From assembly GCA_020632375.1 (NCBI GenBank), contig JACKFR010000001.1, forward strand, positions 21,106 through 85,105: DNA of 64,000 nucleotides, written 5' to 3'. Positions within the stretch are counted from its first letter, which is position 1; every line of letters starts with the position of its first letter. The position numbers and the translations under genes are program-made. The notes beneath the pieces are model-generated. The model did no database searches and was not told where the DNA came from. It was given only the letters and a program-made list of their open reading frames with translations. Below are positions 4,744 through 57,464 of the stretch, piece by piece. This DNA comes from Candidatus Nomurabacteria bacterium. GTDB taxonomy: Bacteria; Patescibacteriota; Dojkabacteria; SC72; JAHDCA01.

Positions 4744-5915
4744 ATAGAGATACCTTCAAGTATTTCCTCATCACTTTTACTTGAACTTGTTTTAAAAGGA
4801 AGCGAAGCAATATCGTCAATTTTTCTACTGTTTTTAAGATCAAAAATATAAGAGGTTGTGTATTTCTTCTTTTTTACTGAGCTGCCTTTAAGGCTCTTAT
4901 ATCCAACGCAAATTGCTCTTTCGGTTCCTTTGAATCCTTTCGATGCAGGATTAAACATTCGATTTATATCAACGCTCCAATAGTCATTTTTTTTGTCCAG
5001 CGGCAAATTAACTGTAACAAGAGGGACTGTTAGATGACTCATGTTGTCAATTGGGCAATCTGTTTTATGTTCGGTATATCCTGTCTCATTAAATGCTTCT
5101 CCGTGGTCGGCGGTAATCACTATTCGAGTTTTGTCTATTTCTAGCAAATTTTTTAGTGCCTCAAAAACATGCTCTAAACATTTGTCCAAATCTTTGCATT
5201 CTTGAATGTACAGGTCTTTCAGATCTTTTATTTCGTCTTCGTTGAGTTCTTCTGGTTGATATTGGAGTTTGTTATTCAACTCTACTGCTTTTATCTGCTG
5301 TTTTTTAGAAAGCTCTTTAGGAATATAAGGCGAGTGGGGCTCCATAAAGTGTAAAAAAATAAAATTGCCAGTCTTTTTTTTGAGCTGGAGCTTTTCTAGA
5401 GTTTTCACTATTTTCCCACCCCTTATATCTTCTTTAACCTTTACTGGCGTGAGTACCTTTCCTCTTAGCATCTTAAAGATTGGCTTTATAATATGTTCAC
5501 GAATCGGTTCCGGAAGAGACTTTACAATACCTTTTTTGACTTCATTAAGTGATTTCATATCCCCCCAATAGTCTTCAAAGTAATCCCACCCATAATTGTA
5601 TCCGAATGCACGGGATGTAACTGCATTTGTAGTTATTCCATAAGTGCGAAATCCTTGTTCTTGAAAGATTTTAGCTAGAAACTCATCAGAATTGTCATCG
5701 TTTATTCCTGCATATCTTGTTCTCTGAAAGGGAATGAAACCAGTCATTAATGCTGGTACTGCAAAGTGAGTCGAAGGCGCATTTGTATATGCTCTGTCTG
5801 AGCTTGAGTTAAGCTCTTTAAGTTTGTTAAGGAAAGGCATTATTTCGGTGTCATAAGCCTGCTCAACTCGCAGACAGTCGCAAATTATAAACACATAGTT
5901 CGTATCTTTGTCCAT
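4740..5915 (-). CDS. Alkaline-phosphatase-superfamily (sulfatase/LtaS/EptA-like) enzyme, no TM or signal peptide
   Basis: N-terminal metal site VFIICDCLR, a nucleophile region NAPSTHFAVPALMTG (Thr/Ser in place of the sulfatase Cys), and the downstream ITADHGEAF motif typical of the superfamily. Confidence 0.65.
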   Translation of the reverse strand: MDKDTNYVFIICDCLRVEQAYDTEIMPFLNKLKELNSSSDRAYTNAPSTHFAVPALMTGFIPFQRTRYAGINDDNSDEFLAKIFQEQGFRTYGITTNAVTSRAFGYNYGWDYFEDYWGDMKSLNEVKKGIVKSLPEPIREHIIKPIFKMLRGKVLTPVKVKEDIRGGKIVKTLEKLQLKKKTGNFIFLHFMEPHSPYIPKELSKKQQIKAVELNNKLQYQPEELNEDEIKDLKDLYIQECKDLDKCLEHVFEALKNLLEIDKTRIVITADHGEAFNETGYTEHKTDCPIDNMSHLTVPLVTVNLPLDKKNDYWSVDINRMFNPASKGFKGTERAICVGYKSLKGSSVKKKKYTTSYIFDLKNSRKIDDIASLPFKTSSSKSDEEILEGISI

Positions 5916-6002
5916 GGGTATAATTCAAATCTCTAGATTACTTTAAGGCGATTGTTCCATATGATAATATCATCTGAACTCTCCAAGATGAATATTTAAA
6001 TT

Positions 6003-7124
6003 ATGATCCTCTTCTGTGTGAAATCATATAAACTAGTAGACCTGAATTTCAGTATTGATAACCAGCTTAATATAAGCTCAATCGACAACGAGCTCAATAC
6101 ATATCTAAAAGCAAAAAATGATACTGATGAAATAATATTTAAAATTGTTGACAGTATACCTGAAAGGAATAGCCAGTATACAAAGGTCTCGAATATGTAT
6201 GTGGCCAAAGACTCTTTGTATATTTCTAATTTCCCTTTTGAAATTAAGATTGAAAATAAATCCGGGATATGGACTGTTTGGGTTGCATTAAAAAAGAATC
6301 TTAACCAGTTGGAAAAAGTTTATCAGCTGGCTTACTTTAACAAATTCTTACACCCAACATACAAATCAACTGACGAAACTTATGGGGCAGATTTTATGTA
6401 TAAAATCTTTCTTCCCCTCATCCAGCTTAAACTCGTAGAACATGGAAGCTCATTTGTGCATTCTAGTGCTATAAGTCTTGATGATAAAGCCATTCTGTTC
6501 ACCTCTTGGGGAGGAATCGGAAAAACAACGACATTGCTAAAATTGCTTTTAACACATAAAGATATAAAATTTCTTTCCGATGATATGGCCGTTCTTGGCT
6601 CTGATGGAAAAGTATATTTGTCAGCTAAATATCTGCATATTTACCCATATAACTGGATGGGATTCAGTAAACTTAAAGAAATTGCTTATAACAAGAGAGG
6701 ACTTGTAGATAAACTAAACTGGAAATTTTGGGGTATCTTTAGGGGAAAAGCTGTTTGTAGGAGGATGCCGCCGTCAGAATTGTTTCCTGATCAGATAGCT
6801 GACTCTTCTACTTTGGATAAGATCTTTTTTTTGAGAAGACGGAATGTCAAATCAATCACATCTAGAAAACCAGATAATACTGTAGACATTATCAAAACAA
6901 TGTCCTACATTGTTTTTAGCGAGTATAAGTTTTTCCATAATGAAATGTTGTTAGCCGTATCTGCCGGATGCGAGATATTTCCAGGCCCAGAAGACTTTAT
7001 TAAAAATGTAGAAAAAAATCTTACGAAACAGATTAGTGGTAAAGATCTGGAGATTGTAGACATTCCATATAAAGCTACACCAGATGACCTTTATCGCTTT
7101 ATGTCAAGTCGATTACTTAGCTAA
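6003..7124 (+). CDS. HprK-C-terminal-domain-like P-loop protein (putative kinase)
   Basis: VHSSAISLDDKAILFTSWGGIGKTTTLLKLL...KFLSDDMAVLG parallels the HPr kinase / HprK-related kinase core (HG..v...g.GvLl.G.SG.GKS....L...G..lvsDD). Confidence 0.5.
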   Translation: MILFCVKSYKLVDLNFSIDNQLNISSIDNELNTYLKAKNDTDEIIFKIVDSIPERNSQYTKVSNMYVAKDSLYISNFPFEIKIENKSGIWTVWVALKKNLNQLEKVYQLAYFNKFLHPTYKSTDETYGADFMYKIFLPLIQLKLVEHGSSFVHSSAISLDDKAILFTSWGGIGKTTTLLKLLLTHKDIKFLSDDMAVLGSDGKVYLSAKYLHIYPYNWMGFSKLKEIAYNKRGLVDKLNWKFWGIFRGKAVCRRMPPSELFPDQIADSSTLDKIFFLRRRNVKSITSRKPDNTVDIIKTMSYIVFSEYKFFHNEMLLAVSAGCEIFPGPEDFIKNVEKNLTKQISGKDLEIVDIPYKATPDDLYRFMSSRLLS

Positions 7125-8647
7125 CCCCGAAAAGATAATCTCCGTAAAAGCTTTCCAACAAGTGCTTTGTCTTCTTGACTATAAAGTCCTAGCAAGATGA
7201 TTAAGCCCAAGTAAACTAGGTATCCTACGATTAAAACTGCCCCTAGCCTCATAATTAGAAGTGCTCTACTTGTACTCACAAATCCAATCAGGTTGAAATT
7301 CCGTTGGATTAAATAAAAAGCGATTCCGTAAGCTAATGACACAATAAATGTTGCGTAGATCTTCGTATTGTAAGGCGTAAATTTACGTATCCAGTAAAGC
7401 TCGATCACTCCAAGTGAATTTTGAACAAACATTGCTGTCGCATTACCAATCGCAGCGCCGATTATCCCAATCTTAGGAATCAGAATGATATCCAATACAA
7501 CAGCAGAACTTATTGAAAAGATAGAGTTTATAGATATAAGTTTTTGCTTATCAAGGGCATTGAGTGTAAAGCCAATCGGGCCTGAAGCCAAATTAGAAAT
7601 AGTCCCAAGAACAAGAATTAGCATGAGGACCATCGGTATCTCAAATTCATTACCGAAGAGGCTAAGAAGCTCTTTAGAGTAAATTACAGTAAAAACAGAT
7701 AATGGTATGGTAATCTGAGTTAGAAGCCTTACAACGTCTTCATATAACTTCTCCACCATCTTATCCTTTTTTTCATGAAATAGTCTTGTAATAGTCGGGT
7801 AATAGATCGTGTTTACTGAAGTAAGAAAGATGCTAGGGATAATTGCTACATTAAGAGCTGCATTGTAAATTCCGACATTTTTTTCTGTATCAAAATAACC
7901 CAGCATTAAGGTGTCCAGATATTTTATCAAAAAAAACAAGATTGTATTTAAAAAGACAGCTCGTGAATAAATGAGATATTCTTTATCGAATTTTTTAAAG
8001 CTTGGAACAAGTTTCAGATGTTTTAGCTTACCAAAATATTTAGCGATTAAAATTGCAGTAAGTGAAAATAGGTGTGCTATCAGGAGTGTGCTCATTACAT
8101 ACCTGTCGGGAATTGTTAGGACTATGACTAGTACTATACCGATAAGACTTATCACCGGATTTACAATATTTTCAATCAAACTCTCTAGGTTAACATTTTC
8201 ATGACTGGTAGAAATTCCGAGCAAAATTCTTGTTAAAGTAAAGGCGGGTAAGGCCAAGATGAGGATTCTTAAATAGATCACTAATTCTGGCGCACTGAAA
8301 AAGTTTGCAATCTGTTTTGAAAGGGCAAGTACGACAGTTGCTATCAGAATGCTCGAGAACAGGCCATACTTTATAGCTGTCCCAGTAAGTGCACGTAATT
8401 TCGCACCGTTTTTTGTTTTGATATATGCCGGTGCAAATCGATTAATCGTTTGGTACAGTCCAAAAACACTGAATAATGCTAAGAATTGAAAAATGCTATT
8501 TGATAGCGAATATAGACCGAGAACTCTGGCTCCCAAAAAATTCCCTATCGTTGAAGTAATCAAGAATAACGCAACAATTCTAGTGAATTTCCCGGTAAAC
8601 ATTATCACACTACCCTTGATTATGTTTTGCCTTGATCCTTTATTCAC
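7121..8647 (-). CDS. Polysaccharide flippase, MOP/Wzx family
   Basis: A 508-aa protein with about 14 TM helices and the length and topology of polysaccharide-biosynthesis (Wzx/RfbX-like) exporters, located in a glycan cluster. Confidence 0.7.
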   Translation of the reverse strand: MNKGSRQNIIKGSVIMFTGKFTRIVALFLITSTIGNFLGARVLGLYSLSNSIFQFLALFSVFGLYQTINRFAPAYIKTKNGAKLRALTGTAIKYGLFSSILIATVVLALSKQIANFFSAPELVIYLRILILALPAFTLTRILLGISTSHENVNLESLIENIVNPVISLIGIVLVIVLTIPDRYVMSTLLIAHLFSLTAILIAKYFGKLKHLKLVPSFKKFDKEYLIYSRAVFLNTILFFLIKYLDTLMLGYFDTEKNVGIYNAALNVAIIPSIFLTSVNTIYYPTITRLFHEKKDKMVEKLYEDVVRLLTQITIPLSVFTVIYSKELLSLFGNEFEIPMVLMLILVLGTISNLASGPIGFTLNALDKQKLISINSIFSISSAVVLDIILIPKIGIIGAAIGNATAMFVQNSLGVIELYWIRKFTPYNTKIYATFIVSLAYGIAFYLIQRNFNLIGFVSTSRALLIMRLGAVLIVGYLVYLGLIILLGLYSQEDKALVGKLLRRLSFRG

Positions 8648-49490: not shown

Positions 49491-50597
49491 ATGAAAACTC
49501 TCCGGTTAGAGAAAGGTAAGTCTTACAAAAGAATTATACAAGAAGCTATTAACACACTAGAGGTTAGCGGGATGATCGTTTACCCGACTGAAACCTGTTA
49601 TGGGATCGGTGTTGACGCTACAGACCAGGCAGCAGTAGACAAGCTGATGAAGTATAAGTCACGTAGAGAAGGGAAACCTCTCTCAGTTGCTGTCTCAGAC
49701 CGAGAAATGGCAAGCAAGTATGCAGAAATTAATGATCTTGCTGACAATCTTTACAAGAACTATCTTCCGGGGCCAGTTACAGTTATATCAAAAGGACTTG
49801 GCAAGCTTGCAAAAGGTGTAGAGTCAGAATTCGGCACTCTCGGAATCAGGATCCCGGACTACCCGCTCATTCTTGATATTGTTTCTAAACTCGGGCGTCC
49901 TGTTACATCTACTTCGGCAAACATCTCTTATAAAAATCGTCCATATAGTATTGAAGCCCTTCTTAAAGACACCCCAGAAAAACAGCTAGATCTGATTGAC
50001 TTAATAATCGACGCAGGTGAGCTTCCACATAATGAGCCTTCAACTGTTGTAGATACAACCCTGAATAATCTTAATGTTATGCGGGCTGGTTCATTAAAGT
50101 TTAATCAGAACTTAACCGAGGATAAAATCATCTTTGCAGCAAATACAAAATCTGTTCAAGAAACTGAAAATTTCGGGGCTATGGTTATGTTGAAATTTAT
50201 CGACACCCCATTAAAACAACCATTTGTTCTTGCACTTAAAGGAGAACTTGGCGCAGGTAAGACCCAATTTGTAAAAGGGTTGGCAAAATCTTTGAAAATA
50301 GCTGACCAGATTTCATCACCAACATATACATTAATTGACGAGTATAAGTACAATTTCGGGCATCGAAAAGGCTATCTTGCACACATGGATACTTGGAGAG
50401 TAGACGGTGTAGAAGAACTGATCAGGACAGGTTATAGTGATTATCTCCAACCAGGGAATGTCCTTGCGATCGAATGGGCAGATAAGTTTTTTGCCGAAAT
50501 AGAGAACCAAACAAAAGCATCAGGTGCAAAAATGATCAAAGTAGATTTTGAGCATATTTCAGAGTCAGAAAGAAGAATTAGAGTTTATGAAGAATAA
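49491..50597 (+). CDS. Fusion protein: TsaC/YrdC (threonylcarbamoyl-AMP synthase) N-domain plus TsaE/YjeE ATPase C-domain
   Basis: N-terminal half: MIVYPTETCYGIGVDATDQAAVDKLMKYKSRREGKPLSV (YrdC fold). C-terminal half: LKGELGAGKTQFVKGLAK...SSPTYTLIDEY (TsaE P-loop and SPTF-like motif). Confidence 0.8.
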   Translation: MKTLRLEKGKSYKRIIQEAINTLEVSGMIVYPTETCYGIGVDATDQAAVDKLMKYKSRREGKPLSVAVSDREMASKYAEINDLADNLYKNYLPGPVTVISKGLGKLAKGVESEFGTLGIRIPDYPLILDIVSKLGRPVTSTSANISYKNRPYSIEALLKDTPEKQLDLIDLIIDAGELPHNEPSTVVDTTLNNLNVMRAGSLKFNQNLTEDKIIFAANTKSVQETENFGAMVMLKFIDTPLKQPFVLALKGELGAGKTQFVKGLAKSLKIADQISSPTYTLIDEYKYNFGHRKGYLAHMDTWRVDGVEELIRTGYSDYLQPGNVLAIEWADKFFAEIENQTKASGAKMIKVDFEHISESERRIRVYEE

Positions 50598-51666
50598 AAA
50601 CATTAAAATTCTTGCAATCGATACTAGCTGCGATGAAACTTCGGTTGCAGTCTTAGAAGATCGTAAAGTGCTTGCAAATGTCTTGGCATCACAAACCGAG
50701 CTTCATAAAAAATGGGGCGGAGTAGTGCCTATGGTTGCACGTAGAGCACATCAAGAGAATATTGGGAAGTGCTATTTAGAAGCAATGAAGCGGGCACGAT
50801 TAAAAATCGATGATATTGACGTGGTGGCAGCAACATACGGCCCCGGCTTGGCGATTGACCTTGAAGTCGGACTTCAATTTGCCCAAAAGTTTGCAATTGA
50901 AAATAAAAAACCTTTTATTCCTGTGAACCATATGGAAGGGCACTTGCTCTCTTCTCTTGCGCTCAATTCAAAAGGTCACGGGGTTTCAGAGTCACTAGAC
51001 AAAAAACAGCTCTTTCCTGCACTTGGTCTGTTGGTTTCAGGTAAACACACAGAAATTATTTTGGCAAAAGACTACGGCAACTACCAAAAGCTAGGAAAGA
51101 CCCTTGATGACGCTGCAGGCGAAGCTTTTGATAAAGTCGGCAGAATGCTTAATTTTGGCTATCCAGGAGGGCCGATAGTTTCTGAATTTGCGAAAAAAGC
51201 AAATCATAAGGAATCGTTTGAGCTTCCCGTTCCGATGCGTAGCTCTGGAAATCTAGATTTCAGCTTTTCGGGTTTGAAAACAGCTTGTCTTTACAAGATA
51301 AACTCATTACGGGAGAGTGGACGATCAGATAAAGAGTGGGCTAACGACTTTTGTTGGGAGTTTATTGAATGCGTCGTCCTTTCTATTACAGAGAAACTCG
51401 GAGAAGCTATAAATCAAAACCCTGGGGTTAAATCATTACTTGTCGGTGGAGGGGTATTTAATAATGAAACATTAGCTCGAAGAGTAGGGAGACTTGCCAG
51501 AAAACATGGTTTGAAGTATCTGCTTCCTGAAAAAAAGTATCGCAGTGACAATGCTGTTATGATAGATCTTGCCGCATACGTGCACGCTGCAGGGAGTGAA
51601 GTGCTTATAGGCAAGAAAGCAATTTCAAAAGTCGACCGAGTTCCCCGATTGTCTATTTCTGACTGA
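50587..51666 (+). CDS. tsaD: tRNA N6-adenosine threonylcarbamoyltransferase TsaD
   Basis: ILAIDTSCDETSVAV, VNHMEGHLL (metal-binding His pair) and GGGVFNN. The start overlaps the fusion gene by 11 nt. Confidence 0.9.
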   Translation: MKNKNIKILAIDTSCDETSVAVLEDRKVLANVLASQTELHKKWGGVVPMVARRAHQENIGKCYLEAMKRARLKIDDIDVVAATYGPGLAIDLEVGLQFAQKFAIENKKPFIPVNHMEGHLLSSLALNSKGHGVSESLDKKQLFPALGLLVSGKHTEIILAKDYGNYQKLGKTLDDAAGEAFDKVGRMLNFGYPGGPIVSEFAKKANHKESFELPVPMRSSGNLDFSFSGLKTACLYKINSLRESGRSDKEWANDFCWEFIECVVLSITEKLGEAINQNPGVKSLLVGGGVFNNETLARRVGRLARKHGLKYLLPEKKYRSDNAVMIDLAAYVHAAGSEVLIGKKAISKVDRVPRLSISD

Positions 51667-52933
51667 TCATCTCTTCAATTTCAGTCAGCCGATTGTATTT
51701 AGCCAGCCTTTCTCCTCTATCTGGACCTCCAAACTTGCTTTGATCGGCTGCTGTACCAACCACCAGATCTGCAATCATATCATCGTTTGTTTCTCCACCA
51801 CGATGAGAAATTACTGCAGTATAGCCTGCTGAAACTGCTAACTTAATTGCGTTGATCGTCTCAGTTACAGACCCAATCTGGTTCAATTTGATCAAAACCG
51901 AATTAACAGCATTGTCATCAATCGCCTTCTTGATCCTTTTCACATTTGTTGTCAGCAAATCATCGCCAACAATCTGGTGTGATTGGCTAAATTGTTGGGT
52001 AAATAGTGCCCAGCCATCCCAGTCTTCTTCATCAAGCGGGTCTTCAGTGCTCCAAATAGGGTACTGAGAGTACATTTCCTTTTGGAAATCTATCCACTCT
52101 TCACGGTTGAGAGATTTTTGCTCTCGCTTTAATTCATAAAGACCGGTTTTATGGTTGTAGAATTCTGAAGAAGCAATGTCTATCGCAAGAACAATCTCGT
52201 CATCAGGCTTATAACCTGCTTTAGTTATCCCTTCTAATATTAAGTCAAAAGCTTCGGCATTAGATTTTATAGTTGTCGGTGCAAATGCGCCTTCAAATCC
52301 GACTGCACCAGAATAGCCTCTCTCAACCAGTAGGTCATGAGTTGCTTTGAATATTTCAGCTCCAGCTCTCAGTGCTTCTTTAAATTCAGGAAATTTCTCT
52401 TTTCTTGGCACCACCATATATTCCTGAAAATCTGTCGCCCAATTGCCATGAAGGCCGCCTTCCATGATAAGAATCATCGGCTGAGGCAGCTGCAGAAGTG
52501 AATGGTCAAACCCTGGCCCCCAATATATTTCTGCAAAGTATTCATAGAGTGGCTTCTGCATACTCGCAGCTGAAGCCCTACAGAAGGCCATTGATGCAGA
52601 TAAGATCGAGTTGCCGCCTAGCTTTTCTTTTAGCTCTGTGCCGTCCAGTTCAATAAGATGTCGGTCAAATTCTACCTGACTTGCAAATTCCTTTCCTATG
52701 ATTGACGGAGCAATTACAGCATTTACTTTTTCAACAGCTTTCAGAGTTCCTTTACCAAAGTAGCGTTTTTTATCTCTGTCACGCATTTCCAACACCTCTG
52801 TTGTGCCAGTTGACGCTCCTGAAGGCACTTGTCCTTTGGCTGTAGTTCCATCTTCCAATGTAATTAGGGCTTCAAGGGTAGGAATGCCTCTCGAATCAAG
52901 TATTTCGCGTGCAGATATAGATTTAATCTTCAT
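51653..52933 (-). CDS. eno: Enolase
   Basis: MKIKSISAREILDSRGIPTLEA..., SGASTG and IKLNQIGSVTE. The start was moved to the ATG at 52933; the longer ORF-track version runs antisense through tRNA-Leu. Confidence 0.95.
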   Translation of the reverse strand: MKIKSISAREILDSRGIPTLEALITLEDGTTAKGQVPSGASTGTTEVLEMRDRDKKRYFGKGTLKAVEKVNAVIAPSIIGKEFASQVEFDRHLIELDGTELKEKLGGNSILSASMAFCRASAASMQKPLYEYFAEIYWGPGFDHSLLQLPQPMILIMEGGLHGNWATDFQEYMVVPRKEKFPEFKEALRAGAEIFKATHDLLVERGYSGAVGFEGAFAPTTIKSNAEAFDLILEGITKAGYKPDDEIVLAIDIASSEFYNHKTGLYELKREQKSLNREEWIDFQKEMYSQYPIWSTEDPLDEEDWDGWALFTQQFSQSHQIVGDDLLTTNVKRIKKAIDDNAVNSVLIKLNQIGSVTETINAIKLAVSAGYTAVISHRGGETNDDMIADLVVGTAADQSKFGGPDRGERLAKYNRLTEIEEMISQK

Positions 52934-53046
52934 TAAATTGGTAGAGCAGATTATTTTAGTCTGGATAAAATATAGCACATGACATTTTAATGATCTAACC
53001 TGTCTCGCTCGCCTGAAGTTTTTTGGTGTATAATTACCGACATGAA

Positions 53047-53136
53047 GCCGAGGTGGTGGAATTGGCAGACACGCTACCTTGAGGTGGTAGTGGGCATAAT
53101 ACGCTCGTGCAGGTTCAAGTCCTGTCCTCGGCACCA
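53047..53136 (+). tRNA. tRNA-Leu (anticodon GAG), long variable arm, CCA encoded
   Basis: Acceptor GCCGAGG/CCTCGGC, anticodon stem CTACC/GGTAG with loop TTGAGGT, an extra arm, and the terminus ...GGCACCA. Confidence 0.88.
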
Positions 53137-53184
53137 AAGAGTGGTTGTCTATGTGCTGCTTTGCGTGTAGAATCCACTATCTGT

Positions 53185-53261
53185 GGGCGATTAGCTCAGC
53201 TGGCTAGAGCATCTCGTTTACACCGAGAGGGTCGTAGGTTCGAGTCCTTCATCGCCCACCA
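53185..53261 (+). tRNA. tRNA-Val (anticodon UAC), CCA encoded
   Basis: Acceptor GGGCGAT/ATCGCCC, D-arm AGCTCAGCTGGCTAGAGC, anticodon loop TTTACAC, a GGTTCGAGTCC T-arm, and the terminus ACCA. Confidence 0.9.
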
Positions 53262-53266
53262 GTATA

Positions 53267-54259
53267 TTAACTCCCGACCAACTGTTTAAAATTTTCTTCC
53301 ACGTTGAAAACATTACTTGGCTTCAGGTTTAGGGTTTTTGCTACCAAGTACTCTGTGGCATGGATGAAGGTTATGAGATCTTTATGTTTGGCATTCACGG
53401 ATTTCTCTCCGAAATGGCTTAACCTATTTCTACATTGTACTAGGTCCTTAACTTTCTCGTCGTCAATCGCTATAAATGAGAAATATTTCCGGAGGACGAA
53501 TTTTACTTTATCTTTACCTTTTGTATTAAAAACGTCTTTATCCGCTTGGTCCTGATTTCTACATGCGTAGATGTTTTCCCATATTGTCCAAGCATGAAGA
53601 AAGTTAGAGTAGTAAAGCCTTTCGAGTGAAAGAGAATTTCTGGCAATCATTTCTTCGCAGATTAAGAGGTAGAATCCATTTCTGTATTTCTTTTTCCAGG
53701 TTGAATCGTTTATCAGTTCTAAAATAGTGTTTATTCCTTCTTCAAATCCCTTATCGTAATGGATCCAGTCTTTATCTTCCATGAAATTGGTCGGGCTTTT
53801 TGAATCCTTATTAACAATTTCGATATTTTGAGGGATTGAGCAATGCAGTGTCACTCCAAAATCTGCCATTCTTGGATCTGCAATAATTGTCGACTCATCG
53901 TTATTAGGAAGTGAAAGGAATACCTTTCGGCGCGTGAAAATCGATAAGAGGTGTAAGATGTCGTCTAGTTCAGAGGCTTTCGATTTACTAATGAGCACCG
54001 AGTTCCGTGGTCTCCCTGGTGTTTTTTTTCTTACGCTTGCTGTGATAGCGTGCGAACCAGTACAACTCTTTATTTCAAATTCAGCTGCTATATTAACCCT
54101 CTGTTGAAGAGCTTGTAGTGCACCATGGTAGTTCTCGATTCTTTCAAAGATATAATCTCCAATCGATAGCTGATCGCAATAGTCTGGGAATTCTAGGTTA
54201 TAAACAAAACGTTTGGCCATTAGGACCTCTCTTGAAATGAAGTGAACCATATCGTTCAC
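53267..54259 (-). CDS. Hypothetical protein with a C-terminal HEPN-like RNxxxH motif (putative RNase/abortive-infection-type toxin)
   Basis: VQCRNRLSHFGEK (R277-x4-H282, encoded at 53414..53431) sits in a helical C-terminal region. The N-terminal 250 aa are unassigned and include an AT-hook-like KKTPGRPRN. The stop lies 5 nt from the tRNA-Val 3' end. Confidence 0.45.
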   Translation of the reverse strand: MNDMVHFISREVLMAKRFVYNLEFPDYCDQLSIGDYIFERIENYHGALQALQQRVNIAAEFEIKSCTGSHAITASVRKKTPGRPRNSVLISKSKASELDDILHLLSIFTRRKVFLSLPNNDESTIIADPRMADFGVTLHCSIPQNIEIVNKDSKSPTNFMEDKDWIHYDKGFEEGINTILELINDSTWKKKYRNGFYLLICEEMIARNSLSLERLYYSNFLHAWTIWENIYACRNQDQADKDVFNTKGKDKVKFVLRKYFSFIAIDDEKVKDLVQCRNRLSHFGEKSVNAKHKDLITFIHATEYLVAKTLNLKPSNVFNVEENFKQLVGS

Positions 54260-54474
54260 AAATACTTTGAGGATGATATCTAAAAAAGATGTTCAAAAAA
54301 AGTCTTAGTTATATAAAAACAGTTGAGTATGGTTTCTTCTCGACCCATCTGCTATAATCAACCCTATGAACAAAGCATTAAATCTAAAATTTAGATTCTG
54401 GCGACCCTCTAACAACTAAGAGGGTGTGATGCTTTATATTTCCATTTTGTATGTTTAGCTAGAGTATCCACCTT

Positions 54475-54548
54475 GGGTGGGTAGTTTGAATTGGTTAAAA
54501 CAACAGTCTCCAAAACTGTAGTTACGGGTTCGATTCCCGTCCCACCTA
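54475..54548 (+). tRNA. tRNA-Trp (anticodon CCA), CCA tail not encoded
   Basis: Acceptor GGGTGGG/CCCACCT (G1-U72), anticodon stem ACAGT/ACTGT with loop CTCCAAA, and a GGTTCGATTCC T-arm. Confidence 0.85.
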
Positions 54549-54679
54549 CAATTTTTCTAAATTAATCTATACAAAAATGACAAATAAAATACCTAATTGT
54601 GAAATAAAAACAATTGATAAACTAGACCAGTACTGTCTTTGGTCTTGATCAAAGAGATTTTGAATCATTACTTTCAAAT

Positions 54680-56050
54680 TTGCCGGATAGGGCTGGCTTA
54701 GTTTTATCTCAACCGATTGGATTAAAATTGCGTAATTCTCCTGAAGAAGATGCAATAGCTGCTTATCAGGAGGTTGGTTTACCAGAATTTATCCACTCAG
54801 CAGAGCTTTCGAAGCAACAGAAGATTCAAACTCTAAGAGGCATTATTATGGAAAGTGGTTTGACTCTATACAGTGAGCTGGTAGCTAATTTCTTATCAAG
54901 AGGCTGCCATTTTACCGGGCTTTCAGTTGACGACTACTTTCAAATTCTCTTAGGGAATGCTATTCAACCAAAGCTGTTCGCCGATGCCTGTAGTAAAGCA
55001 GGAACGCAACTTGAGTACTACTTCAATGACACATCGACTGAAAGATACTTTCTTGTTGCCCAACAAGAGCGACTTAAAAGAATTTCAAGATTTCATAAAC
55101 GATTTCTAATACTTTGCAAAAACTACGAGGTTGAGTTTGAACAGGGGCTTTTTGACCGGTTTATCCAAGTAAGTGACTTAATAATGGAAATAACGAATCC
55201 GTGTATGGAAGGTAGATATGAAGAAGGATATTACGGGGATTTGGACAGAGTGTTATTTGAAGCCGTTATATTAGGTAAACCAATTGACTTGGTTAAGATC
55301 CAATGCATGAGGATGTTGCAGACAAAAGATTCTGATGGGAGAAATAGATTATCAATAAGTACATCTATAGATTATGAAGAGATTTCTGATAAGGGCGGTA
55401 GAACGCGGGTTTTTCAAGATACTTCGAGTCTAATTGACTATCTCACGCATTTGTCAGTTAAGTTTGCCGATATCGGAATCGAAGTGCGCCCGATTGTTGT
55501 AATTACTGATGACGATATTCGGAATATGTACCCGAAAGGATCCGTCATACCCAATGCGGATCTGATCGAGATTGAGAGAAAAGTTTTGATTTATTTACAA
55601 AATCTAAGACAGTACACGAATAAAATAGGAAGTAGTGTAGAAGTCTATTTAATCAGCCACCTAGCTTCCGGTACTGGGTATGAAGAAACAAAAGAATATG
55701 TATGCCAAGATTGTATTGCTGGTGGAAAGTCTGAAAGACCAATTATTTCCGAGAAAGAGTACGGATCCGCTGTTCAGGCTGATCAGAAAAAATATGGTTG
55801 CGAGCTAGGCTATCCGATTGAGATTTCTAAATATAAGGTCGGGATGTCGTTTGGAGTACTCCGAGGACTGTATGACTTAGGCAAACAGGTCGAACAAGTT
55901 CGACAGAGTAATGCCGTTTTTATCGCTCGATCAAAACCTGGGATTCAAATGCATATGGGGGTGTCCGTTGAGGGAAGGAGTGATCGGATACCTGTTTTGT
56001 TAGCTTATTCTAATGGGTTAAAGGTGTTTTATGAGAGGGGGAGGTTTTAA
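54680..56050 (+). CDS. Orphan protein (456 aa), no recognisable family
   Basis: An uninterrupted ORF from a TTG start, with an alternative ATG at 54848. I saw no P-loop, nuclease or other catalytic signature. Confidence 0.5.
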   Translation: MPDRAGLVLSQPIGLKLRNSPEEDAIAAYQEVGLPEFIHSAELSKQQKIQTLRGIIMESGLTLYSELVANFLSRGCHFTGLSVDDYFQILLGNAIQPKLFADACSKAGTQLEYYFNDTSTERYFLVAQQERLKRISRFHKRFLILCKNYEVEFEQGLFDRFIQVSDLIMEITNPCMEGRYEEGYYGDLDRVLFEAVILGKPIDLVKIQCMRMLQTKDSDGRNRLSISTSIDYEEISDKGGRTRVFQDTSSLIDYLTHLSVKFADIGIEVRPIVVITDDDIRNMYPKGSVIPNADLIEIERKVLIYLQNLRQYTNKIGSSVEVYLISHLASGTGYEETKEYVCQDCIAGGKSERPIISEKEYGSAVQADQKKYGCELGYPIEISKYKVGMSFGVLRGLYDLGKQVEQVRQSNAVFIARSKPGIQMHMGVSVEGRSDRIPVLLAYSNGLKVFYERGRF

Positions 56051-56378: not shown

Positions 56379-57464
56379 CTAGTGCAACGCGCTTTCTCTT
56401 ATGCTTCCAAGTGAATTAGAAACAAATGTCACCTGCTGTCTAAACTCATCTAAGTTGATAGCGTTTACATAAGTCATTGCGCTTTGCAGACCATCTTTAA
56501 GTCTTAAAACAATTTCGTCTGCATATTTTGCATTTAAATCTTTGTAAATAACTCCTCCTTCTACATATCTGTGTGATTTTGAGGTTTCTTTAGATGCGTT
56601 GCCAGTATATTTAAGCATTAGGTTGCCATCAACCTTCTCTAGTACTGAATCTTCCATGCTTTCCGATGCAAAAATTCCGCCCATCATTGCACCTTCGCAT
56701 TTGGTCAGAGCTTTTACAAATTCTCCAGGGAATTTAATCCCGCCGTCTGTGATAATCTTTAGGTCATTAATCCCTTGATCATCTATAAATGACCTCATCT
56801 TCTCTATAAGTGTAAAGCTACCAACCCCAACGCCTGCGTTCAAACGAGTTAAGCAACCTGCCCCTCCTCCAATACAAACTCTGATAATCTTCTCTTCGTA
56901 ACCAAGATTGTCCATTGCGTTGTAAAGAAAAGCTAGACCCCGAACAGAGCCTACGGTTCCGGGCATGACACCGTTTTTAATTCCCAGCTTTGATAAGCGT
57001 TGTAGCTGCTTGATTGTGTCGTGATTAGCCGCTTGTGCAATGCTGATTGCAATCATATACAGGTTTTTCTTTTGTATGAGTTGCTCAATAAACTCATCAT
57101 CTTCGTTAAGCCCTATCGTTGCGCCGACTCTTTCTCCGGCTTTATCTATATCTGCAAGTCTTTCTTTGTACGTAAGCCCAATCCTTGGTAATACATGGAG
57201 AGTATCTTGCTTAGCTAGATCGACTGCCATTTTTGATCGCATAAATGACATTGATGCCCCAAATGCAGGGAAAATCTTATACTTCTTGTTGCGAATTGAA
57301 TTAAACTCTTGTTGAATATCGACATCTCTTCTTGAGCTTACTTTAGTAAGATATGTCGGGATTATGCTGACATCAGAATACGTGTTGTAGACCTCGCCCC
57401 CATCGTAGGATTTGAATTTATCGGCGTATTTAATCGCTTCCTCAATCAATTTAGAAAGATCCAT
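56379..57464 (-). CDS. IMP dehydrogenase/GMP reductase family protein (no CBS insert)
   Basis: TIM-barrel signatures: VCIGGGAGCLTRLNAGVGVG (equivalent to the GxGPGSxCTTR catalytic Cys loop) and ITDGGIKFPGEFVKAL...AMMGGIFA (phosphate-binding). Confidence 0.6.
   Translation of the reverse strand: MDLSKLIEEAIKYADKFKSYDGGEVYNTYSDVSIIPTYLTKVSSRRDVDIQQEFNSIRNKKYKIFPAFGASMSFMRSKMAVDLAKQDTLHVLPRIGLTYKERLADIDKAGERVGATIGLNEDDEFIEQLIQKKNLYMIAISIAQAANHDTIKQLQRLSKLGIKNGVMPGTVGSVRGLAFLYNAMDNLGYEEKIIRVCIGGGAGCLTRLNAGVGVGSFTLIEKMRSFIDDQGINDLKIITDGGIKFPGEFVKALTKCEGAMMGGIFASESMEDSVLEKVDGNLMLKYTGNASKETSKSHRYVEGGVIYKDLNAKYADEIVLRLKDGLQSAMTYVNAINLDEFRQQVTFVSNSLGSIRESALH

Follow-up and report, generated by a model that had tools for sequence, protein, structure and literature searches.

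ApeA is a single-protein HEPN defense RNase that is activated through a pocket between its N-terminal and HEPN domains; its targets are the anticodon loops of tRNA, or phage RNA (Juozapaitis et al., 2026, bioRxiv 10.64898/2026.01.26.701840; Drobysheva et al., 2026, bioRxiv 10.64898/2026.03.20.713152). It is ~560–600 aa long and mostly helical, with N (~200 aa), Mid (~110 aa) and split HEPN (~250 aa) domains, and it forms decamers or dodecamers (10.64898/2026.01.26.701840). HEPN proteins are recognized by an Rx4-6H motif in which the Arg is followed by a polar residue (N/D/H); the motif closes a helix that leads into a loop, and an acidic residue is found in the earlier helix 2 (PMC3710099). 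Here we describe a gene for a protein with a C-terminal domain of this type, H6764_00350, which lies in a 64,000-nucleotide stretch of DNA (‘the window’) from the metagenome-assembled genome (MAG) of a Candidatus Nomurabacteria bacterium. Its product belongs to a rare, uncharacterized HEPN family with a novel N-terminal domain. We consider it probable that this is a horizontally acquired accessory gene for a single-gene defense or abortive-infection HEPN RNase, in which the N-terminal domain would be regulatory and which would act with no partner gene. The gene and its parts are:

53267..54259, minus strand: mechanical open reading frame (ORF) of 330 aa, from a GTG at 54259 (ORF list)
53267..54220, minus strand: HEPN-family gene H6764_00350, 317 aa, stop codon included (homologue alignment, Shine-Dalgarno-like site)
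54226..54231, minus strand: Shine-Dalgarno-like GAGAGG, 5 nt 5’ of the ATG at 54220 (read from the minus-strand sequence)
53753..54220, minus strand: N-terminal alpha/beta domain, residues 1–156, family-specific (AlphaFold2 model, DSSP, conservation)
53270..53752, minus strand: C-terminal all-helical HEPN domain, residues 157–317 (AlphaFold2 model, DSSP, Pfam)
53414..53431, minus strand: codons for R264-N-R-L-S-H269, the predicted catalytic Rx4H motif (reverse complement AGA AAT AGG TTA AGC CAT)
53576..53578, minus strand: codon for E215, the candidate acidic residue of HEPN helix 2 (conservation, helix position)

An initial annotation of this DNA had reported an ORF at 53267–54259 on the minus strand ending 5 nt from a tRNA-Val gene, and the ORF list and ARAGORN agree: the stop codon occupies 53267–53269 and faces the 3’ end of the convergent tRNA. 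The length given there, 330 aa, is that of the mechanical ORF and not of the real protein, which most likely starts at the internal ATG 54220 and has 317 aa, the 13 extra codons being 5’ untranslated region (UTR). In alignments, all homologues begin where this ATG (MAKRFVYNLEFP...) falls, and the NCBI annotation of the MAG has the same 317-aa form (MCB9790461.1). We rejected the GTG at 54259 on the basis of that alignment and because it falls within what is probably the 5’ UTR, inside a small hairpin. The hairpin itself, GTGAACgatatgGTTCAC (54242–54259, minus strand), is terminator-like. Residue numbers below refer to the 317-aa form; adding 13 gives those of the initial annotation, so that R264/H269 correspond to its R277/H282. 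The GC content of the gene is 0.37–0.39, compared with 0.42–0.44 in the flanking enolase and tRNA block. Of the 38 positions conserved to at least 85% across the family, the window protein keeps 36, a fraction higher than the family median (0.92), and the gene therefore looks intact and functional.

The evidence that the C-terminal domain is HEPN comes mainly from conservation and topology. The string CRNRLSHF, on which the HEPN idea was originally based, is present in the translation, as is KKTPGRPRN, discussed below. We estimate that an R-x4-H string arises by chance ~0.3 times per protein of this size, and it is meaningful only through its conservation in relatives. Conservation was counted over 77 representatives with mutual identity of at most 50%: R264 is present in 77/77, N265 in 70/77 (with H in five more) and H269 in 76/77, so the Arg and His singled out in the initial annotation are indeed those that the family keeps. 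E215 is Glu in 74 of the 77 and sits in a long helix (199–221), in a form that differs from the typical Ex3[KR]. The AlphaFold2 model is confident (predicted local distance difference test score, pLDDT, 87.6; predicted template modeling score, pTM, 0.88) and divides the protein into an alpha/beta part (1–156) and an all-helical part (157–317), the latter with helices assigned by DSSP at 157–170, 173–182, 184–192, 199–221, 227–232, 235–246, 254–270, 279–296 and 307–315. Helix 254–270 carries the motif at its C-terminal end and is followed by a loop and then helix 279–296, and two short helices are inserted between the E215 helix and the motif helix. This topology, with the motif at a helix end and a conserved Glu in an earlier helix, is the HEPN layout (PMC3710099).

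Profile matches point the same way. The window protein matches Pfam HEPN_Apea (PF18739) over residues 236–293 with 20.3–20.5 bits (E 6.8e-4), which is under the cut-off of 24.4, and the same model matches 12/77 family members (best 5.5e-6). Weak matches to HEPN_Swt1 (10–11 members), RiboL-PSP-HEPN (4–5) and Cthe_2314-HEPN (1), again among the 77, fall in the same region. UniRef names the Pelolinea submarina homologue ‘Apea-like HEPN domain-containing protein’, and one metagenomic relative, P0120, was seen above the Pfam HEPN_Apea cut-off (25.8 vs 24.4 bits). In the model R264 and H269 lie inside an all-helical domain. Structure comparison is weak, with no Foldseek match in the PDB better than E 1.3. 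The top 50 of these weak PDB matches include six HEPN entries, namely 1ylm (YutE), 3o10 (sacsin HEPN), 4nqf, 7ae6 (HepT), 9oij (HepS) and 8y7f (Csx1). Comparison by hhalign of the family profile with DUF4145 (from L019) and Abi_C (from L007) gave no signal, but the templates were single sequences and the result is hence uninformative. We conclude that assignment of the C-terminal domain to HEPN, and with it the HEPN-like region with RNxxxH of the initial annotation, is well supported by sequence and topology, although three-dimensional superposition gave no confirmation.

The N-terminal domain is shorter than had been thought. The initial annotation left the first 250 aa unassigned, but the helical C-terminal domain begins near residue 157 of 317. 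Within the N-terminal domain T60 and R98 are invariant, and N8, F11, G55, D87, D115 and R117 nearly so. It has no match in Pfam, NCBIfam, PHROGs or PADLOC, and none in the PDB either by sequence or, at E<1, by fold. When it was modeled alone, residues 1–100 stayed confident while the pLDDT of residues 101–158 fell from ~56–92 to 47–70. This loss of confidence without the C-terminal domain suggests that segment 101–158, which carries an ‘ADPR’ motif and includes D115 and R117, packs against the HEPN domain. We rejected the AT-hook that had been read into KKTPGRPRN: in homologues this loop is acidic and variable (consensus ELPxxEEKAVL), with only the Pro conserved.

Next, we compared the protein with described HEPN systems. 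Like ApeA, it is encoded by a single gene with no conserved partner, has a C-terminal HEPN domain with R-N-x3-H for which HEPN_Apea is the best Pfam model, and has an N-terminal region without known homologues that touches the HEPN domain (here, as the AlphaFold2 models indirectly suggest); both are also found in or near restriction-modification (R-M) operons (PMC3710099 for ApeA; family loci below). Unlike ApeA, it has only 317 aa and combines a 155-aa alpha/beta N-terminal domain with ~160 aa of HEPN rather than three helical-type domains. It matches no PADLOC model, it scores below the HEPN_Apea threshold, and the family-profile search yielded 259 proteins nearly all of ~300–330 aa, with longer ApeA-type proteins not among the matches listed. 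Because architecture, curated models and profile reach all fail, we keep the family outside ApeA proper and file the window protein as one that would work like ApeA or like an R-M-embedded Abi HEPN, but is not an ApeA. With the R-M-embedded Abi-type HEPN proteins (Abi2/AbiD/AbiF, Swt1-like and RiboL-PSP-HEPN; Anantharaman et al., 2013, PMC3710099) it shares the polar residue after the Arg of Rx4H, a position in or abutting R-M operons, and a patchy spread consistent with horizontal transfer. Its N-terminal domain and overall architecture differ from theirs, no such Pfam family is reached at threshold where per-protein scores were shown, and there is no Abi_2 or Abi_C match. The anticodon nucleases PrrC and RloC are likewise HEPN RNases linked to R-M and provide a possible model for family copies that follow type ISP, I or III enzymes, but they carry an N-terminal ABC-ATPase domain (PMC3710099), whereas the window protein has no P-loop/ATPase Pfam match and no R-M neighbor. 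The likeness to HepT-MntA is a minimal HEPN RNase core, HepT being among the weak structural matches (7ae6); the differences are the lack of a minimal nucleotidyltransferase (MNT) gene adjoining the window gene and the extra 155-aa N-terminal domain.

The gene had been called an orphan, which is not borne out. A word-indexed search of 5.8 billion proteins returned 34 cluster representatives, with 33 relatives at 32–40% identity over >90% of the length. In an exhaustive profile search of 1.84 billion cluster representatives, 259 proteins passed E<=1e-3 and 130 of them passed E<=1e-30, each match representing a cluster at 50% identity. Nearly all complete members found by the profile search are 300–330 aa and align end to end, and the two-domain architecture is therefore fixed in the family. 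P0120 (237 aa) looks chimeric, with an ABC-transporter Walker-A fragment (17–66) ahead of the family HEPN domain (71–236); it may be a real fusion or an artefact of assembly or gene calling. The family is sparse and patchy. In a survey of 185,579 species genomes, one per species, there were 50 family loci, which come from both bacteria and archaea and from at least 12 phyla: 19 in Chloroflexota, 11 in Patescibacteria, five in Planctomycetota, two in DPANN archaea, two in proteobacterial lineages, and single loci in WOR-3, Omnitrophota, Bacillota, Actinomycetes, Verrucomicrobiota, Bipolaricaulota and Cloacimonetes. The nearest homologue of the window protein is only ~40% identical and comes from other phyla. 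No relatives were found among IMG/VR viral contigs, PLSDB plasmids or INPHARED phages.

We then turned to the genes that accompany the family. All-against-all comparison of neighboring ORFs from the 50 loci revealed no conserved partner gene, with the exception of a type ISP enzyme in five loci. In these Chloroflexota loci (L017, L040, L042, L048 and L049; about 4800–8000), a ~1040-aa type ISP/IIG R-M enzyme ends 7–24 nt upstream of the family gene, and on a Pacearchaeota contig (L024, 286–6225) the family gene is flanked by the two genes of a type III R-M system, Mod on its upstream side and Res on the other. These arrangements suggest that in some lineages the family gene is operonically coupled to R-M. 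Other identifiable neighbors include a C5 methylase beside a HaeIII-type endonuclease (L030), an N6/N4 methylase (L031), Mrr (L035), a type I R-M system with Abi_C (L007), Dcm with a MutH-like nuclease (L006 and L007), a PLD-SNF2 helicase with an MmeI-type methylase, PemK and SLFN/AlbA (L004 and L013), BrxC/BrxD-like ATPases with a Cas3-like helicase (L008), and AAA_15/21, DUF4145 and PemK (L001). Together with the patchy spread, these R-M and defense neighbors in relatives bear out the accessory or defense association that the initial annotation had proposed. Its statement that there is no MNT partner also holds, both in the window, where no nucleotidyltransferase-type ORF is adjacent, and in the 50 loci, where no neighbor of any kind is conserved and the 25 commonest neighbor families listed include no nucleotidyltransferase.

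In at least 23 of the 50 loci a co-directional gene ends 4–76 nt upstream of the family gene. Such spacing would fit an addiction toxin of the toxin-antitoxin (TA) type, masked by an unrecognized antitoxin that evolves fast, whether a small protein, an RNA or the neighboring R-M enzyme. Its chief task would be the stabilization of R-M operons or genomic islands by the logic of PrrC-EcoprrI, and not direct sensing of phage. HEPN toxins occur widely in TA systems (PMC3710099), several of these upstream genes are R-M subunits, which would permit PrrC-like masking, and PemK toxins occur nearby in two contexts. However, the upstream genes are mutually non-homologous, those identified are diverse (AhpC, AAA_28, a transposase, a metallophosphatase, methyltransferases), and besides the type ISP enzyme no neighbor family occurs in more than four loci. 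The window gene, moreover, has no upstream co-directional gene and no MNT gene. A type III antitoxin RNA was rejected, as there are no tandem repeats in 52900–54800, no Rfam match other than tRNAs, and no upstream DNA motif common to the window and the other loci. We therefore regard a masked toxin as unlikely, though it is the alternative that survives best.

We favor a self-contained defense RNase, for which the following mechanism can be proposed. By analogy with characterized HEPN enzymes, we infer that two HEPN domains would dimerize, and that the composite active site built by the pair would cleave RNA independently of metal ions. The N-terminal domain would pack on the HEPN domain and keep the RNase off until an infection-derived signal was sensed; once activated, the enzyme would cleave RNA of the host or the phage (tRNA, mRNA or rRNA), and this cleavage would stop phage multiplication. 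The gene would often travel as a tail or insert gene of R-M operons, and the Nomurabacteria copy would have been acquired horizontally, at a synteny breakpoint beside tRNA genes. A more specific version, which we offer tentatively and think somewhat doubtful as a whole, is that the ~155-aa alpha/beta fold (T60, R98, D87, D115, R117) adjoins an ApeA-like HEPN domain and forms with it a site where a signal binds. The protein would then be a half-size ApeA-like sensor-RNase for a different infection signal, its gene among the few defense genes common to Patescibacteria with their reduced genomes and DPANN archaea, and coupled in many lineages to type ISP or type III R-M.

Several observations weigh against a defense RNase. 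The HEPN_Apea score of the window protein (20.5 bits) is under the Pfam cut-off of 24.4, the protein has no match in PADLOC (PADLOC-DB 2.0, E<=1), NCBIfam or PHROG, neither it nor the family profile finds a PDB sequence match, and its model has no significant structural match in the PDB, 1.3 being the best Foldseek E. Position 216, which is His in 71/77 relatives, is Asn in the window protein. In the window the neighbors are an enolase gene, tRNAs, an ORF specific to the candidate phyla radiation (CPR), an IMP dehydrogenase (IMPDH)-like gene and a NUDIX gene, with no R-M or known defense gene adjoining; nor is there an integrase or att-like repeat at the gene. The flanking repeats are short and at chance level, and a discrete mobile element is therefore not demonstrated. 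Finally, the argument from defense neighborhoods in relatives is qualitative, made without a background control, and many neighbors elsewhere are housekeeping or unknown genes.

Some of these points would also fit a HEPN-like protein that is non-catalytic or decaying and that in this genome no longer works as an RNase, for example a remnant that binds a ligand or has a structural role: the H216N substitution, the sub-threshold Pfam score, and the lack of defense genes beside the window gene. A remnant is nevertheless improbable, given a full-length frame with conserved residues retained above the family median, a complete set of the motif R, N and H and of E215, and a good Shine-Dalgarno-like site. 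A defense RNase still in working order remains the reading that we prefer.

Next, we examined the setting of the gene in the window, where the neighboring features on one side and the other are:

53047–53136, plus strand: tRNA-Leu(gag) (ARAGORN, Rfam)
53185–53261, plus strand: tRNA-Val(tac), convergent with the HEPN gene (ARAGORN, Rfam)
54475–54549, plus strand: tRNA-Trp(cca), divergent from the HEPN gene (ARAGORN, Rfam)
54680–56050, plus strand: ORF456, 456 aa, H6764_00360, in a conserved unit with the preceding tRNA-Trp

The gene is thus bracketed by tRNA-Leu/Val and tRNA-Trp, as first described. It has no co-directional neighbor in the window, and a spacer of ~250 bp (54221–54474) separates it from tRNA-Trp. 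In a relative (L009) the order tRNA-Trp, ORF456 (65% identical), NUDIX, 414-aa ORF, RmuC, DUF1846, DUF5684 is kept, but the syntenic site has no HEPN gene and an MBL hydrolase gene lies upstream instead. DNA homology between the window and this relative ends at ~54340, just upstream of the HEPN gene start. Synteny therefore breaks there, and the HEPN gene lies with its 5’ flank on the side that varies.

The data do not support a functional role for the tRNA neighborhood. A tRNA was found within ~1.2 kb of the family gene in 2/49 survey loci scanned (L060 and L016) and in 0/5 other homologue loci scanned, so we rejected tRNA linkage as a property of the family, and the relative just described has the tRNA-Trp unit without the HEPN gene. 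The position in the window looks incidental, reflecting at most a general tendency of accessory DNA to adjoin tRNA genes. That the protein might be a housekeeping enzyme of tRNA or rRNA maturation or quality control, placed in a tRNA cluster since it acts on those transcripts, is highly improbable: the window gene does lie between tRNA-Val and tRNA-Trp, a few related loci have tRNAs (the same two), aminoacyl-tRNA synthetases or RtcB nearby, and in eukaryotes HEPN proteins such as Las1 act in rRNA processing (PMC3710099), but a gene found in so few species genomes, patchily across phyla, absent at the syntenic site of a relative, only ~40% identical to its nearest homologue (from other phyla), rarely adjacent to tRNAs, and accompanied mostly by R-M and defense genes where its neighbors can be identified does not behave in that way. 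Altogether, the initial annotation is partly supported: what it described exists and its HEPN proposal is essentially correct, while the orphan, AT-hook and tRNA-linkage elements are not.

ORF456 was considered as a partner of the HEPN protein and rejected, since its unit with tRNA-Trp is kept in relatives without the HEPN gene and it is absent from other HEPN-family loci. Its own family is tiny and CPR-restricted, with four other clusters among the 5.8 billion proteins (46–65% identical), and searches of Pfam, PADLOC, NCBIfam, PHROG and the PDB found nothing similar. In each case examined ORF456 comes immediately after tRNA-Trp, and its conserved core begins near M57. In Dojkabacteria a class-Ib aminoacyl-tRNA synthetase gene with an editing domain precedes the tRNA-Trp of this unit.

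A conserved non-coding block lies before tRNA-Trp in the window (54345–54474, plus strand) and in two other loci (L009, 2190–2344; L011, 7600–7710); it is almost identical in L009 and partly conserved in Dojkabacteria. It consists of a TATAAT-like box followed by a 17-codon mini-ORF (MNKALNLKFRFWRPSNN, then a stop; the Dojkabacteria version is MYKKLIHTFLCWRHS, then a stop, with W-R in common). A hairpin, CCCTCT-N8-AGAGGG, overlaps the stop of the mini-ORF and is followed by a T-rich tract (RNA fold z-score -2.1). The block resembles a leader or an attenuator-like element that contains one Trp codon and precedes tRNA-Trp. Further downstream, between ORF456 and the NUDIX gene, the window has a gene for a 361-aa IMPDH/GMP-reductase-like protein (56379–57464, minus strand; Pfam E 3.9e-32), which is absent at the equivalent site of L009 and constitutes a second indel in an otherwise syntenic block.

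On the other side, the mechanical enolase ORF (51653–53137, minus strand; 494 aa from a TTG) runs antisense across tRNA-Leu; judged by eye, enolase itself probably begins at the internal Met of MKIKSISAREILDSRG, near 52930. Upstream of the enolase gene, the ORF at 49491–50597 (plus strand) looks by eye like a Sua5/YrdC (TsaC)–TsaE fusion (YPTETCYGIG and GELGAGKT motifs), and that at 50548–51666 (plus strand), which overlaps it by 50 nt, looks by eye like TsaD. The two would be a pair of genes for synthesis of N6-threonylcarbamoyladenosine (t6A).

A defense role for this family would bring no conceptual surprise: HEPN genes in R-M and defense islands have been described since 2013, and ApeA is already a single-protein sensor plus HEPN. 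If the proposed role is correct, a small HEPN defense RNase of 317 aa with a sensor-like domain of unassigned fold would give the HEPN immune repertoire a new module for trigger recognition, and the small size would make the protein tractable for structural and biochemical work. It would also be a rare innate-immunity gene in ultra-small CPR bacteria and DPANN archaea, whose defense arsenals are poorly known.

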